From Escherichia coli (GTDB lineage Bacteria; Pseudomonadota; Gammaproteobacteria; Enterobacterales; Enterobacteriaceae): a DNA stretch of 64,000 nucleotides. The position numbers were made by a program, and so were the translations under genes. The notes beneath the pieces were generated by a model. It worked only from the letters and a program-made list of their open reading frames with translations, did not search any database and was not told the DNA's origin. The stretch lies in assembly GCF_048403405.1 (NCBI RefSeq), contig NZ_CP183129.1, one strand, 5' to 3'. The first letter of the stretch is position 1, and the number at the start of each line of letters is the position of its first letter. Shown piece by piece: positions 3,362 to 45,315 of the stretch.

Positions 3362-3526
3362 AAGAAAACTCCTTTCGAATCAGGAGGCCATTGTAACGGA
3401 ATACGTGCAGTTGCGGCGCTGATATTGCAGAAATGAGTGTGGTATAGTCACCTTGCGAAACAGAGTTTATCTTCGTAGGCTTAGACTTGCATCCACGGTT
3501 AAGTCAGAGTGCTGACAGGAGGGCAT

Positions 3527-3727
3527 GTGGAAAAATATTGTGAGTTAATACGCAAGCGGTACGCGGAAATCGCCAGCGGAGACTTAGGATACGTTCCGGA
3601 CGCGCTGGGCTGCGTTTTGAAAGTGCTGAATGAAATGGCTGCCGACGACGCCCTTTCTGAGGCTGTCAGGGAAAAAGCAGCATACGCTGCGGCAAACTTA
3701 CTGGTGAGCGATTATGTCAATGAATGA
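3527..3727 (+). CDS. yaeP: UPF0253 small protein YaeP
   Basis: In-frame GTG start at 3527 preceded by a GGAGGG Shine-Dalgarno; product [23 protein letters not shown]... of about 66 aa. Confidence 0.75.
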
Positions 3728-3974
3728 TACGTATCAACCAATCAATTGTGATGATTACGATAATCTTGAGCTCGCCTGCCAGCATCATTTAATGCTGACA
3801 CTCGAGCTGAAAGATGGCGAAAAATTGCAGGCGAAGGCCAGCGATTTAGTCTCCCGCAAAAATGTGGAGTATCTGGTCGTCGAGGCCGCTGGTGCAACCC
3901 GCGAGCTGCGTCTGGATAAAATTACCAGCTTTAGCCACCCGGAAATCGGTACGGTGGTGGTGAGCGAGTCCTGA
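3720..3974 (+). CDS. rof: Rho-binding antiterminator Rof (YaeO)
   Basis: 84-aa product starting [23 protein letters not shown]...; overlaps the yaeP 3' end by 8 nt. Confidence 0.88.
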
Positions 3975-3983
3975 TTGACTTTC

Positions 3984-4016
3984 GCCGGATGCGACGTTTG
4001 AAGCGTTTTATCCGGC
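3984..4016. repeat. REP-like (repetitive extragenic palindromic) element between rof and tilS
   Basis: gccggatgcgacgtttgaagcgttttatccggc resembles the REP consensus (GCCGGATG...CATCCGGC-like arms); sits between convergent genes. Confidence 0.6.
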
Positions 4017-4022
4017 TTTCAC

Positions 4023-5320
4023 TTAACTAAGCGTTTTCTGCCAGACAAAACTGACGCCATTCTCACCTTCAGCCACACCTTCTTGCGTCACAAATACCCC
4101 TGCCGCCGCAATCAACGTTTCGCCATAAAACAGCAGTGGCGTGGTGTCACGTAGCCACGGCGGCACACCCAGCTCTTGCCAGATTTTCTTCAGCTTACGT
4201 CCGCCGTTGCGCCCGATAATATGCAGCAATCCTGGCGCTTTGAAACGCACGCTGACCGCTTCGTCTGCACGCGGAGGGCGAATATCGCCTCCCGCAGTAA
4301 GCTGTACACTTCCCAGTCCCGCCGGTAATTCCAGCGGTTGTAGCCACGTCTGCCACGGCACAATGGTTTCGCTTTGCCCGGCAACGGATTTAATCCACCA
4401 CAGTTGCGACTGATAGCGGCGGATTTCAAACGCGCCCAGACGTAAACAGGGGGAAGCATCTTCCCGCGCCAGCGCCACTTCCTGCCAGATCCGCACCAGC
4501 GCGTCGCGGGAAGGCATCGGTGCATTCTGCCCTGCCAGCCAGCGGCGGATAATTGCCGCGCGACGGGCATCACTCATCGCCAGCATTGGCGCAATCTGCA
4601 GCGTCCCCTGCGGCGTTTGGCAGTGCGCTAAATCATCTGCCAGCAATTCATCCAGCAGGCTCTCTTGTTCAGCACAAAGTGCGGCGCTGCGGGCCGTTGC
4701 GTCGGCAAAATGCGGCCAACGCTGCTGCAATAACGGCACTACGCGCAGGCGCAGAAAGTTACGATCGTATGAGTCGTCCTGATTACTTTCGTCTTCAATC
4801 CAGCGTAAACCATGCGCCAATGCCCACTGCTCCAGTTCCCCCGCGTGCGGGCGAGCAACGGGCGGATAAGCCGTGTTCCGGCAAACTCCGAAACTTCCGC
4901 CATAGCCGAAAGCCCGGCAGGGCCGCTACCGCGTTTTAGCGCCAGCAGAAAGGTTTCACATTGATCGTCGAGATGTTGCGCGGTGACCAGCACTTCGCCG
5001 GGCAATAGGGTACGGGCAAATGCCTGATAACGCGCCTGCCGCGCCTGGGCCTCAATCCCCAGCCCCTCTTGCGCAAGTTGTACGCGTTCGACCACCAGCG
5101 GCACCTGCCACTGTTGGCAGATGTTCTCGCAATGCCTAACCCAGGCATCGGCATTGGCACTTAAACCGTGATGCACATGGATAGCGCGTAGAGTGACGCC
5201 CGGATTTTCCGTCCGCCACTGCACCAACTGATGCAGCAAAACGGTGGAGTCAAGCCCGCCGCTAAAGGCCACCAGAATCTGGCGTGAGGTGAGAAGTTGT
5301 CTATTGAGCGTGAGTGTCAT
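4023..5320 (-). pseudogene. tilS: tRNA(Ile)-lysidine synthetase TilS, disrupted by a 1-nt frameshift (or sequencing error)
   Basis: N-terminal ORF 4739..5320 carries the PP-loop SGGLDS and the C-terminal ORF 4023..4820 continues the protein in another frame; the frames switch at a C5 run at 4838..4842 (G5 on the coding strand), where one extra base would restore ...[17 protein letters not shown]... Confidence 0.85.
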
Positions 5321-12560: not shown

Positions 12561-13157
12561 TCAGGACGCAAGTCCCAGTGCGCGTTTGACAGGCCCAAAG
12601 CTGCGCCGATGGTGTTCGGTCGCGCCGTGTTCAGCCAGTTTTTCCAGATGAAAAGCGGTTGGATACCCTTTGTGTTGGGCAAAACCATATTGCGGGAAAA
12701 CAATATCCAGCGCCGCCATTTCGGCGTCGCGCGTCACTTTCGCCAGGATAGACGCAGCACTGATTTCTGGTACGCGGCTATCGCCTTTCACCACTGCCAT
12801 CGAAGGCATCGGTAATTTCGGGCAGCGGTTACCATCAATCAACACATATTCCGGCGCAATATGCAGCCCAGCGACGGCACGCTGCATCGCCAGCATGGTC
12901 GCATGTAAAATATTCAGTTCGTCGATTTCGTGAGGTTCCGCTCGGCCCAGACTCCAGCTCAACGCTTTCTCTTTGATCTCTTCACAGAGCGCCAGACGGC
13001 GTTTTTCGCTCAGCTTTTTGGAATCATTCAGCCCGGCAATCGGGCGCGACGGGTCAAGGATCACCGCAGCGGTGACGACCGCGCCAACTAACGGCCCGCG
13101 TCCGACTTCATCCACACCCGCAACCAGCTGCGTGTGCGGATAAACAAATTCGATCAT
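12561..13157 (-). CDS. rnhB: Ribonuclease HII
   Basis: 198-aa ORF ([10 protein letters not shown] motif); overlaps the lpxB stop by 4 nt. Confidence 0.93.
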
Positions 13158-39945: not shown

Positions 39946-40290
39946 TTAGATGCTAAAGGAAGAACCGCAACCGCAGGTGCTTTTCGCGTTCGGGTTGGTC
40001 ACGATGAAACGAGAACCTTCCAGACCTTCGGTATAGTCAACGGAACCGCCGACCAGATATTGCAGGCTCATCGGATCAACCACCAGGCCAACGCCCTGTT
40101 TTTCGATGGTCATATCGCCTTCGTTCACCTGATCATCAAAGGTGAAACCATACTGGAAGCCGCTGCAACCGCCACCGGTGATATACACGCGTAATTTCAG
40201 ATTCGGGTTATCTTCGTCAGCGATCAGGCTTTTAACTTTGTTGGCTGCTGCGTCGGTAAACTCCAGCGGCAGTGCTACGTCATCACTCAT
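39946..40290 (-). CDS. erpA: Iron-sulfur cluster insertion protein ErpA (A-type carrier)
   Basis: 114-aa product [20 protein letters not shown]... ending in the CGCGSSF cysteine motif; the track ORF has an upstream extension. Confidence 0.94.
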
Positions 40291-40371
40291 ATTTTGCTCC
40301 AAACGACATCGGCAATTGGGCAAATTCTAACCCAATAATAATCGCCATTATCTAATACCCTGGTATTTCGT

Positions 40372-41811
<1,440 letters not shown>

Positions 41812-42017
41812 TCATACAAATAAGATGACGGCATTTTACTCGCACGTTCCATGAAAATCCTTTGCAAAGCGTAATGTTTCAAATGCACAAAACTTTTATA
41901 CTCTAAGAAATCAGGATTGCACCAGTACAAGCAGCCTGATGTTTGACGAGTATTTAACTTGTTATGAATAACATAGAATAGCAGCCATTCACTTTTTCTA
42001 CGAATCAGGAACCCTCC

Positions 42018-43298
42018 ATGAGTAAGTCTGAAAATCTTTACAGCGCAGCGCGCGAGCTGATCCCTGGCGGTGTGAACTCCCCTGTTCGCGCCTTTACTGG
42101 CGTGGGCGGCACTCCACTGTTTATCGAAAAAGCGGACGGCGCTTATCTGTACGATGTTGATGGCAAAGCCTATATCGATTATGTCGGTTCCTGGGGGCCG
42201 ATGGTGCTGGGCCATAACCATCCGGCGATCCGCAATGCCGTGATTGAAGCCGCCGAGCGTGGTTTAAGCTTTGGTGCACCAACCGAAATGGAAGTGAAAA
42301 TGGCGCAACTGGTGACCGAACTGGTCCCGACCATGGATATGGTGCGCATGGTGAACTCCGGCACTGAAGCGACCATGAGCGCCATCCGCCTGGCCCGTGG
42401 TTTTACCGGTCGCGACAAAATTATTAAATTTGAAGGTTGTTACCACGGTCACGCTGACTGCCTGCTGGTGAAAGCCGGTTCTGGCGCACTCACGTTAGGC
42501 CAGCCAAACTCGCCGGGCGTTCCGGCAGATTTCGCCAAACATACCTTAACCTGTACTTATAACGATCTGGCTTCTGTACGCGCAGCGTTCGAACAGTACC
42601 CGCAAGAGATTGCCTGTATTATCGTCGAGCCGGTGGCAGGCAATATGAACTGCGTTCCACCGCTGCCAGAGTTCCTGCCAGGTCTGCGCGCGCTGTGCGA
42701 CGAATTTGGCGCGTTGCTGATCATCGATGAAGTGATGACCGGTTTCCGCGTAGCGCTAGCTGGCGCACAAGATTATTACGGTGTGGAACCGGATCTCACC
42801 TGCCTCGGCAAAATCATCGGCGGTGGAATGCCGGTAGGCGCATTCGGTGGTCGTCGTGATGTAATGGATGCGCTGGCCCCGACCGGTCCGGTCTATCAGG
42901 CGGGTACGCTTTCCGGTAACCCGATTGCGATGGCTGCTGGTTTCGCCTGTCTGAATGAAGTCGCGCAGCCGGGCGTTCACGAAACGCTGGATGAGCTGAC
43001 AACACGTCTGGCAGAAGGTCTGCTGGAAGCGGCAGAAGAGGCCGGAATTCCGCTGGTGGTAAACCACGTTGGCGGCATGTTCGGTATTTTCTTTACCGAC
43101 GCCGGGTCCGTGACGTGCTATCAGGATGTAATGGCCTGTGACGTGGAACGCTTTAAGCGTTTCTTCCATATGATGCTGGATGAAGGTGTTTATCTGGCAC
43201 CGTCAGCGTTTGAAGCGGGCTTTATGTCCGTGGCGCACAGCATGGAAGATATCAATAACACCATCGATGCTGCACGTCGGGTGTTTGCGAAGTTGTGA
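42018..43298 (+). CDS. hemL: Glutamate-1-semialdehyde 2,1-aminomutase
   Basis: 426-aa [29 protein letters not shown]... (class III aminotransferase fold). Confidence 0.96.
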
Positions 43299-43332: not shown

Positions 43333-45315
43333 TTAACGGCTCTGCTTTCTCAACAAATAGATAAAATATGGCGCGCCGATAAAGGTCGACAGCAGCCCCG
43401 CCGGGATCTGGAATGGAAACAATACCATCCGCCCACACCAGTCAGCGAACACCAGCAGTAATCCTCCCACCAGCGCCGAAATTACGATGTGTGGCATCGT
43501 CCGTCGAAAGCCCATCATCCGCGCAATATGCGGTGCCATTAAACCAACAAAACTCAACGGTCCAATAGTCATCGTCGCGGTCGCCGTCAGGCAAGCCGCT
43601 AATAGCAGCAGCGCAATTCGCGTCGGCGTCAGCGCCATTCCTACGGCTCGTGCGGTATCACCGCCCAGCGGTAAAATGGTCAGCCAGCGGCGGCACAGCG
43701 GGGTAATCGCCAGCAAAATTACCATCACAATTCCCGTGCGCCAGACCTGCGCATCGGTCGCGTTGTAGGTCGAACCGGAAATCCAGGTCAGAACTTGCGC
43801 CATTCGCGGGTCACCACTTGCCTGCAACATCATCAAAAGCATGGTGAACGCGGTACTTAACGCCATCCCCGCCAGCAACATGCGGTGTGGGGAAAATCCA
43901 CCGCGTCCGGCGGCGATTATAATGATCAACAGCGTCACCGCCGCCCCGAGACTTCCCGCTGGTAACAGCCAGCCAAAGGCATTACCCGGCACCAGAAACA
44001 GCATTAACACCACGCCAAACGCCGCGCCGGAGCTAATCCCCAGCACTTCCGGGCTTGCCATCGGGTTGCCGGTCAGCCGCTGAATAATACAGCCCGCCAC
44101 CGCCAGCATGACGCCCGCAAACAGCGCCGCCATAATTCGCGGCCAGCGCCAGGGCATCAAATCCTCGAGTAATGCCCCGCTCGCCCACGTCCAGCCGTGC
44201 GCATCACGACCAAACGACAGCGCCACCACCACAGCCATCAACAGCAGCACGCCGCCCGCGAGGGCAAACGCCAGCACATGTTGGCGTTCAGCAGCGACAC
44301 GATCGTTCACCTTCATATCCGGCGCGCTAATGCTGCGTAAACGCGGCAGCAGCCAAAGTAGCAACGGCGCACCGATCAACGCAGTGACCGAACCGGTAGA
44401 AACTTCCATCCACACGCGAGTCAGCCAGAGGATGATTTGATCAGAAAGCCACAGAATTAACGCACCAATCAGCGACGCCAGCATTAACCGTGGCAGCAGA
44501 CGCCGCGCCCCCAGCATTTTTGCCAGCAGCGGCGCGAACAACCCGATAAAGCCGATAATCCCCACTGCATTCACCAGCAGCGCACTGATGACTATCGCCA
44601 GCGACAGCGCCGCCAGACGCGCGAGCGACAAGGCCAGCCCGAGATTGCGCGCCACGCCATCATCAAGCCCCATCAGGGTTAACGGACGAAGTAGCAGTAA
44701 CGTCAGCATCACGCCGCCCAGCAACTGCGGCCATAAACGCTCAACGCCGCCCCAGTCGGTTTGCGTCAGCGTTCCGGTGCTCCACAGGAACATGCTTTGT
44801 AGCTGGTCGTGATGGAAGATAACCAGTAACTGATTGATTGCCCCACAATAAAGGCTCACTACCAGCCCCGCGAGAATCAGCGTTACCGGCGACAGCCGTT
44901 TCCCCCACGCGACGCCAAAGACAATTAAGCCAACAACGCAAGCCCCTGCCAGCGCAGCAAACTGGCTCGCCATAGCACCTGGGATCGCCCAGAGCGTAGT
45001 GACGGTAATCCCCAGTTGCGCGCCTGTTGCAACGCCCAACGTCGTCGGTTCCGCCAGCGGGTTACGCAGCACTTGCTGAAACAGCACGCCCACCAGCCCC
45101 AGGCCCGCGCCCACCAGCAGCGAAATCGCCAGACGCGGCAACAAGCTGTAGTGAAAAATCATCTGCTCGATGACGTCAATATCCGGCGACCAGGCGGCCT
45201 GCGCCCACTGGCTGCGCGGCAGCGCTTGCGAAAAGTTCATCCAGGTGAGCGCCGCTGCGACAATCACCAGCAGCGCCAGCAATAACGCCGGGAAAAGCGC
45301 AATTCGTTTACTCAC
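43333..45315 (-). CDS. fhuB: Ferric hydroxamate ABC transporter permease FhuB
   Basis: 660-aa duplicated-permease ORF; overlaps the fhuD stop. Confidence 0.95.
   Translation of the reverse strand: MSKRIALFPALLLALLVIVAAALTWMNFSQALPRSQWAQAAWSPDIDVIEQMIFHYSLLPRLAISLLVGAGLGLVGVLFQQVLRNPLAEPTTLGVATGAQLGITVTTLWAIPGAMASQFAALAGACVVGLIVFGVAWGKRLSPVTLILAGLVVSLYCGAINQLLVIFHHDQLQSMFLWSTGTLTQTDWGGVERLWPQLLGGVMLTLLLLRPLTLMGLDDGVARNLGLALSLARLAALSLAIVISALLVNAVGIIGFIGLFAPLLAKMLGARRLLPRLMLASLIGALILWLSDQIILWLTRVWMEVSTGSVTALIGAPLLLWLLPRLRSISAPDMKVNDRVAAERQHVLAFALAGGVLLLMAVVVALSFGRDAHGWTWASGALLEDLMPWRWPRIMAALFAGVMLAVAGCIIQRLTGNPMASPEVLGISSGAAFGVVLMLFLVPGNAFGWLLPAGSLGAAVTLLIIIIAAGRGGFSPHRMLLAGMALSTAFTMLLMMLQASGDPRMAQVLTWISGSTYNATDAQVWRTGIVMVILLAITPLCRRWLTILPLGGDTARAVGMALTPTRIALLLLAACLTATATMTIGPLSFVGLMAPHIARMMGFRRTMPHIVISALVGGLLLVFADWCGRMVLFPFQIPAGLLSTFIGAPYFIYLLRKQSR

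Follow-up and report, generated by a model that had tools for sequence, protein, structure and literature searches.

Short overlaps between the stop codon of one gene and the start codon of the next are a classic setting for translational coupling. Coupling by RNA unfolding and coupling by scanning are both established models (reviewed in PMC12548453). Among native Escherichia coli gene pairs with a four-nucleotide overlap (−4), four of the five tested were coupled, the exception being bioBF (Huber et al., 2019; PMC6728339). The same study puts the proportion of overlapping pairs at about 15% in most prokaryote groups.

The pair analysed here, yaeP and rof, has been described before, and the name yaeP–rof operon is in use in the literature (Said et al., 2024, PMC11018626; Morita et al., 2022, PMC9765468). 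Both studies deal with the same genes at the same locus. Said et al. reported an overlap with the preceding reading frame of 8 nt for rof and of 4 nt for arfB; in Enterobacteriaceae, according to them, rof always overlaps yaeP. They also described REP elements that bracket the yaeP–rof locus. Morita et al. pointed out that the yaeP stop codon overlaps the first codons of rof and may modulate rof expression, and for this reason cloned yaeP and rof jointly. Neither the yaeP/rof nor the yaeQ/arfB overlap is new, and short overlaps between operon genes are routine. The additions made here, which come from sequence comparison, are a conserved 14-nt junction geometry and rof start, a Shine-Dalgarno (SD)-like GGUGAG where the literature reports no such element, and a predicted hairpin that is conserved in the rof leader.

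A further study lists yaeP among genes with AUGUG or GUGUG starts, as an atGTG-start gene with the SD sequence AGGAGG, a protein abundance of 94.5 ppm and no predicted start ambiguity (Kohl et al., 2022; PMC9841429). The yaeP gene studied here carries the same AUGUG and the same AGGAGG. This feature of the yaeP start is unrelated to the overlap with rof.

The window, that is, the whole 64,000-nt stretch of E. coli DNA that was analysed, aligned at about 99% to strain ST2747 and corresponds, in reversed orientation, to about 153–217 kb of K-12. The RefSeq annotation of ST2747 was carried over gene by gene, and each reading frame was checked. YaeP matched the UPF0253 family (Pfam PF06786) over residues 1–65 of 66, with E=7.5e-34 and 116.3 bits against a cut-off of 27; 72 of 82 distinct orthologues begin with GTG. 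Rof matched the YaeO family of Rho-binding antiterminators (Pfam PF07073; E=2e-28, 98.7 bits against a cut-off of 27.6) and differs from the proteins in PDB entries 1SG5 and 8W8D by a single substitution, E61A. The original prediction had placed here a yaeP of about 66 residues with a GTG start and a rof ending at position 3974, and the annotation and the Pfam matches confirm these coordinates and identities. A 901-nt query around the two genes matched 5424 of 5426 complete E. coli genomes, several of them at 100% identity; only 347 of the 5424 were at least 99% identical over the 901 nt. The 86-nt segment that holds the junction is identical in 5290 of the 5424. The features of the locus and of the other overlaps in the window are collected in Table 1.

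Table 1. Positions of the yaeP–rof features and of the other stop/start overlaps; numbering is that of the 64,000-nt window.
Feature	Position	Strand	Remarks
Promoter-like site 5′ of yaeP	3419-3448	+	CTGATA, 18-nt spacer, TATAGT, with TG as in an extended −10; candidate from a consensus scan
yaeP SD sequence AGGAGG	3517-3522	+	−10.8 kcal/mol against the 16S 3′ tail
yaeP coding sequence	3527-3727	+	66 aa; GTG start inside AUGUG (3525-3529); TGA stop 3725-3727
Conserved block GUCAGGGAA	3665-3673	+	YaeP codons 47-49; synonymous sites held
RNA hairpin GCAGC-AUAC-GCUGC	3677-3690	+	YaeP codons 51-55, in an Ala-Ala-Tyr-Ala-Ala-Ala stretch (codons 51-56)
SD-like GGUGAG of rof	3703-3708	+	5 nt 5′ of rof ATG 3714; contains an in-frame TGA (3705-3707)
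yaeP/rof overlap ATGTCAATGAATGA	3714-3727	+	14 nt from ATG 3714; 8 nt (3720-3727) from the K-12 start
rof coding sequence, conserved start	3714-3974	+	86 aa; TGA stop 3972-3974; K-12 annotation from 3720, 84 aa
CUCGCC, candidate anti-RBS segment	3771-3776	+	rof codons 20-21; complementary to GGUGAG; tentative
REP-like palindromic element	3975-4020		Between the convergent rof and tilS; weak Rfam match to REP-derived naRNA4, both strands
yaeQ>arfB overlap, 4 nt	2816-2819	−	ATGA; arfB without SD-like sequence
lpxB>rnhB overlap, 4 nt	13154-13157	−	ATGA; rnhB SD moderate
lpxA>lpxB overlap, 1 nt	14302	−	TAATG; lpxB without SD-like sequence
mtnN>btuF overlap, 8 nt	38438-38445	+	ATGGCTAA; btuF without SD-like sequence
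yadW>erpA overlap, 8 nt	40283-40290	−	ATGAGTGA; erpA SD moderate; absent from the original prediction
fhuD>fhuB overlap, 4 nt	45312-45315	−	GTGA; fhuB with strong SD GGAGGU, −10.9 kcal/mol
fhuC>fhuD overlap, 1 nt	46202	−	TGATG; fhuD without SD-like sequence
pcnB>folK overlap, 4 nt	58940-58943	+	ATGA; folK SD moderate

Nine co-directional pairs in the window share a stop/start overlap, of 1 to 14 nt with yaeP/rof included. All the further overlaps of 1–8 nt that had been listed for arfB/yaeQ, lpxA/lpxB/rnhB, fhuC/fhuD/fhuB, mtnN/btuF and pcnB/folK are present. Nine overlaps among 45 co-directional adjacent pairs (20%) do not exceed the frequency of about 15% known from other prokaryotes (binomial P=0.23), and the overlap frequency in the window is unremarkable and not above chance. 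Six of the nine are of the same type as the −4 and −1 overlaps (ATGA, TGATG, TAATG) at which termination–reinitiation has been described (Huber et al., 2019; PMC12548453). Three are longer than these experimentally tested arrangements, namely yaeP/rof (14 or 8 nt), mtnN/btuF (8 nt) and yadW/erpA (8 nt). Apart from yaeP/rof, all eight overlaps are ordinary −1, −4 or −8 junctions between operon genes, broadly similar in nature to it. Two of the pairs, yaeP/rof and yaeQ/arfB, were compared across Enterobacterales, and both have a conserved junction geometry; in 70 loci the yaeQ/arfB spacing was −4 in 48, −1 in 6 and +1 to +7 in 16. A literature search for coupling experiments on lpxA/lpxB, fhuCDB, mtnN/btuF, pcnB/folK, arfB and yaeP/rof found none.

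BtuF and FhuD are present at only 1–3 copies per cell (PMC12094219), so that an overlap alone is no guarantee of substantial downstream output. In these two genes, overlapped starts devoid of an SD sequence go together with very low protein output.

The length of the yaeP/rof overlap depends on where rof is taken to begin. In the K-12 MG1655 annotation rof starts at the second in-frame ATG (3720), which gives 84 residues and an overlap of 8 nt; in the RefSeq annotation made by PGAP it starts at the first (3714), which gives 86 residues and 14 nt. Both forms of the protein have been used in structural work, the 86-residue form in 1SG5 and the 84-residue form in 8W8D. For a comparison of the two starts, one genome per species was scanned for the Rof motif INCDDYD across many Enterobacterales genera. 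This gave 120 loci, of which 114 encode rof, with 95 distinct rof-start sequences and 82 distinct yaeP sequences. The equivalent of ATG 3714 is invariant (95/95), whereas no more than 54 of the 95 have one for ATG 3720; its place is taken by ACG in Pantoea and Erwinia, by ATA in Photorhabdus and Kosakonia, and elsewhere by TTG, GTG, ATC or AAA.

The conservation of the first ATG is visible in the overlapping gene as well. ATG 3714 spans the YaeP codons for Tyr63 and Val64, and its invariance forces the Tyr63 codon to be TAT. This is the codon in all 82 distinct yaeP sequences, whereas TAC makes up 12–34% at the other four tyrosines. Two neighbouring codons are similarly fixed, Val60 as GTG (81/82) and Leu58 as TTA (82/82), in contrast to the free variation at other Tyr, Val and Leu codons.

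Upstream of the first ATG lies the SD-like GGUGAG, which is kept in 92 of the 95 distinct sequences, 17 of the 19 without yaeP among them. The TGA inside this element closes the rof frame, so that 3714 is the first possible rof start. Said et al. (2024) worked from the K-12 start, with an 8-nt overlap, and described rof as having no SD sequence; the present data favour a start at ATG 3714, with a 14-nt overlap and a conserved GGUGAG, and add rof leaders without yaeP from within Enterobacterales. The comparison favours 3714 over 3720, and with it a conserved overlap of 14 nt, 8 nt being the figure of the K-12 annotation. In E. coli, which has both ATGs, both might be used, and protein data outside the present comparison may underlie the choice of 3720 by the K-12 curators. 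The original prediction of an 8-nt overlap was right that the genes overlap, but its length holds for one annotation and becomes 14 nt from the conserved start; its warning that such small genes are easily mis-started is borne out by the disagreement between K-12 and PGAP. The choice has a practical side, as overlap length and Rof residue numbering differ between the K-12 or UniProt-style entries (84 aa) and those of RefSeq PGAP (86 aa).

The junction is strongly conserved across the order. A yaeP gene lies directly 5′ of rof in 91 of the 114 rof loci, with the same 14-nt geometry in nearly all of them. This geometry extends over six families: Enterobacteriaceae, Erwiniaceae, Yersiniaceae, Pectobacteriaceae, Hafniaceae and Budviciaceae. 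From the yaeP stop to the INCDDYD motif of rof, most overlapping loci are free of indels. A 3-nt insertion near the junction was found in four loci, two of them from Budvicia (L022 and L058); in the other two (L034 and L084) the overlap is 17 nt.

With the gene anatomy, the rof start, the junction geometry and the constraint at the nucleotide level directly observed, we regard it as fairly probable that yaeP and rof form an operon in which translation of rof is coupled to that of yaeP. The two genes would share a transcript that begins at a promoter 5′ of yaeP. A consensus scan of the + strand gave no promoter-like match in the interior of yaeP 5′ of rof. The block GTGTGGTATAGTCA (3437–3450), within the candidate promoter, is nearly identical to TGTGCTATAGTCA 5′ of the stand-alone rof of Photorhabdus and Xenorhabdus, a near-identical extended −10 element being retained in rof leaders that lack yaeP.

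On such a transcript, the ribosome start site of rof would lie wholly within the last 25 nt of yaeP. Its putative parts are the weak SD-like GGUGAG, a 5-nt spacer and the conserved AUG 3714, with another AUG following in frame at 3720 in E. coli. The yaeP stop lies 11 nt 3′ of the first rof AUG, and a ribosome that terminates there would end on the rof start region. Coupling could then take either of two routes. The terminating ribosome could re-initiate at rof after a short backward scan, or the ribosome translating yaeP could keep local structure in the RNA at the rof start unfolded. By either route the synthesis of Rof would be tied, at least in part, to that of YaeP. The second route resembles coupling by RNA unfolding in the MS2 coat/lysis genes and in E. 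coli rpmI–rplT (PMC12548453), in that the rof start is predicted to be paired and an upstream ribosome would open it. At yaeP/rof, in contrast to those systems, the structure is a prediction with weak statistics and two pairing registers. In the predicted fold of the E. coli mRNA the rof start region is mostly paired, with an unpaired probability of 0.15, as against 0.46 in a fold without the rof sequence further downstream.

The original prediction held that overlaps of this kind imply translational coupling. The overlap is indeed a plausible setting for it, but "imply" is too strong a word, as bioBF is an uncoupled pair and the rof start is kept where yaeP is absent. Functional coupling of yaeP and rof is likely, in our judgement, but it does not follow from the sequence.

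An SD-like GGUGAG, and rof genes without yaeP that keep the same start region, make independent initiation at rof possible. The overlap would then be a case of compact dual coding, with rof translated by free 30S subunits from its own GGUGAG and AUG. Translation of yaeP would barely affect Rof, and the conserved junction would reflect two coding constraints and a ribosome-binding site. We hold this to be the less probable account. About 20 loci in several genera have rof standing alone with the same start region; the arrangement GGUGAG-N5-AUG without a preceding yaeP frame is found in Photorhabdus, Xenorhabdus, Morganella, Arsenophonus, Tatumella, Rosenbergiella, Acerihabitans and Steffania. 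Against the full 16S 3′ tail (GAUCACCUCCUUA) GGUGAG scores −7.6 kcal/mol, within about the top 5% of random 20-mers. Two uncoupled rof copies (L079 and L092) have UAGGAGA or GUGAGGA instead, which supplies a canonical SD with unchanged spacing. That an overlap need not couple is seen in bioBF, and the overlapped downstream genes of the window, taken as a group, have SD sequences no weaker than those of its other genes. However, a ribosome that terminates at 3725–3727 covers AUG 3714, which rules out full independence. The predicted pairing of the start region in the E. coli mRNA also speaks against free access, as does the retention of the exact 14-nt geometry in six families, with the 3-nt insertion confined to four loci.

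In a different reading, compatible with coupling, the 3′ third of yaeP would have a second role as the cis-regulatory RNA leader of rof, made up of GUCAGGGAA, the hairpin at 3677–3690, GGUGAG and CUCGCC. The output of Rof would be set or switched through RNA folding or by a putative RNA-binding factor or small RNA. The synonymous constraint in this region is strong. For YaeP Arg48, 77 of 81 sequences use AGG, a rare codon, and none uses CGN; Glu49 is GAA in 78 of 78. Acerihabitans, Steffania and Tatumella, whose rof leader is non-coding, have retained the segment UCAGGGAA there as well. The motif CAGGGA resembles the CsrA core motif, but in E. coli the SD region of rof is without GGA.

The hairpin shows covariation. 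Its middle pair occurs as A-U, G-C, C-G, U-A and G-U; 43 of 76 sequences have a Watson-Crick pair there, where 27.7 would be expected (permutation p<1e-4), and the covariation exceeded that in all of 500 shuffles. Leaders of rof that lack yaeP keep a hairpin at the same position, with different loops, together with GGUGAG. The G and C positions of the hairpin, and with them much of its stem, follow automatically from the run of alanine codons. The outer helix GUCAG:CUGGU around it is 86% paired, with almost no two-sided changes and a register that differs between groups. Read on the minus strand (3690–3677), the hairpin was considered as an antisense terminator and rejected: this is the same hairpin read backwards, and its T-run is specific to E. 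coli and absent in other genera.

Constraint of the same kind is found downstream, inside rof. At codons 20 and 21, 66 of 67 sequences have CTC or CTT for Leu20, and 66 of 67 have GCC for Ala21; alanine and leucine codons elsewhere vary freely. In the minimum-free-energy fold of the E. coli sequence CUCGCC pairs with GGUGAGC, and in the RNAalifold prediction GGUGAGCG forms a helix with rof codons 20–23, with 97% of cells paired and little covariation. The synonymous constraint at codons 20–21 supports this predicted helix. It is relaxed in the Morganellaceae-type loci that lack yaeP, a contrast that is statistically light, as the loss of yaeP in that group may be a single event. The minimum free energy of the yaeP/rof region is not statistically distinctive (z=−1.17), and two pairing registers are possible for the structure predicted at the rof start.

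Taken together, the conserved features tentatively suggest an RNA-level element that governs rof expression. None of the Rfam 15 covariance models matched the region of the yaeP 3′ and rof 5′ ends at the gathering threshold; with the threshold relaxed to E<=10, a spurious miRNA was returned besides the REP-like naRNA4, which lies 3′ of rof, and nothing else. The analysis brought up no candidate for a binding factor. Two papers on Rof and a 2025 review of Rho make no mention of translational control of rof, and neither they nor Said et al. (2024) name a regulator of rof expression, a point in favour of such a leader. We consider it possible, rather than probable, that the 3′ third of yaeP acts in this way. 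The further proposal, that the last ~60 nt of yaeP are a conserved leader which gates Rof synthesis and survives as non-coding sequence in lineages with no yaeP 5′ of rof, is put forward with the same caution.

A programmed +1 frameshift at the yaeP stop (AAU GAA UGA), which would yield a YaeP–Rof fusion in the manner of prfB, is very improbable: rof does lie in the +1 frame relative to yaeP and an SD-like element does precede the stop, but this element ends 13 nt before the GAA codon, as against a spacing of 3 nt in prfB, there is no slippery or shift-prone codon at the stop, which is itself TGA or TAA after codons that also vary, rof has its own invariant AUG in a frame closed by a TGA 9 nt upstream, and it exists without yaeP.

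Coupling of rof to yaeP is the preferred reading, with the leader as a possible addition to it. Rof inhibits the essential termination factor Rho, and the conservation of its start site provides a concrete place in which to seek its control. If the leader reading is true, the missing point of control over when cells switch off Rho-dependent termination could lie in the 3′ end of yaeP.

The essential gene tilS carries a frameshift in the window. A 1-nt deletion shortens a G6 run to G5 and splits the gene into reading frames of 193 aa and 265 aa. A comparison with 5379 complete E. coli genomes found the G5 version in none of them, and the top match, at 99.2%, corresponded to a single gap. The G5 run is most likely a homopolymer error of sequencing or assembly in the source. 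The hemL gene is intact in the window (42018-43298) and is annotated as frameshifted (20821-22100 of L002) in the record of ST2747, the E. coli strain whose RefSeq annotation was transferred onto the window; the frameshift in this reference is probably an assembly error.

In the yad-type fimbrial operon, codon 201 of the usher gene is TCG in ST2747 and TAG in the window. By its sequence, this amber codon marks the gene as a pseudogene, or a truncated gene, in the window strain. The start of the fimbrial chaperone is annotated as an ATT at 60430 (+ strand); a TTG follows directly at 60433 and may be the true start. An ATT is also the annotated start codon of pcnB (57546, + strand), a documented case of AUU initiation. 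Two very small genes, yadW and yadX, are readily overlooked by gene callers and went unmentioned in the original prediction.

Features located in the window.
Feature	Position	Strand	Remarks
Extended -10-like element GTGTGGTATAGTCA	3437-3450	+	Upstream of yaeP
GUCAGGGAA block and covarying hairpin	3665-3690	+	Constrained at synonymous sites
CUCGCC	3771-3776	+	Constrained at synonymous sites
tilS	4023-5320	-	Frameshifted; indel ~4838-4842
CssrA sRNA	26856-26965	-	Rfam, gathering threshold
t44 RNA	27804-27890	-	Rfam, gathering threshold
HtrA (degP) 5' UTR thermometer	36011-36056	-	Rfam, gathering threshold
yadW	40283-40348	-	21 aa, intact; 8-nt overlap with erpA
yadX	41805-41852	-	15 aa, intact; 11 nt before clcA
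Fimbrial usher gene	61199-63799	+	Amber codon at 61799-61801

The three RNA elements assigned by Rfam, namely CssrA (between rpsB and tsf), t44 (upstream of rpsB) and the degP thermometer, are all known. The conserved GUCAGGGAA block, the hairpin and CUCGCC, which surround the rof start, had no match in Rfam. In Enterobacterales that lack yaeP, the block, the hairpin and the SD-like GGUGAG motif are in part kept as a non-coding leader of rof. Within Rof itself, residue 61 (86-aa numbering; codon at 3894-3896) is Ala in the window strain, in the context AAGATRE; at this position Glu (AAGETRE) is found both in K-12 and in the solved structures.

The extended -10-like element upstream of yaeP is near-identical to TGTGCTATAGTCA, found upstream of the stand-alone rof of Photorhabdus and Xenorhabdus. 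At L005, one of the loci of comparison, the rof ATG is preceded by such an element at a distance of 100-85 nt. The near-identity of the two elements suggests that a single ancestral promoter serves both arrangements, yaeP-rof and stand-alone rof.
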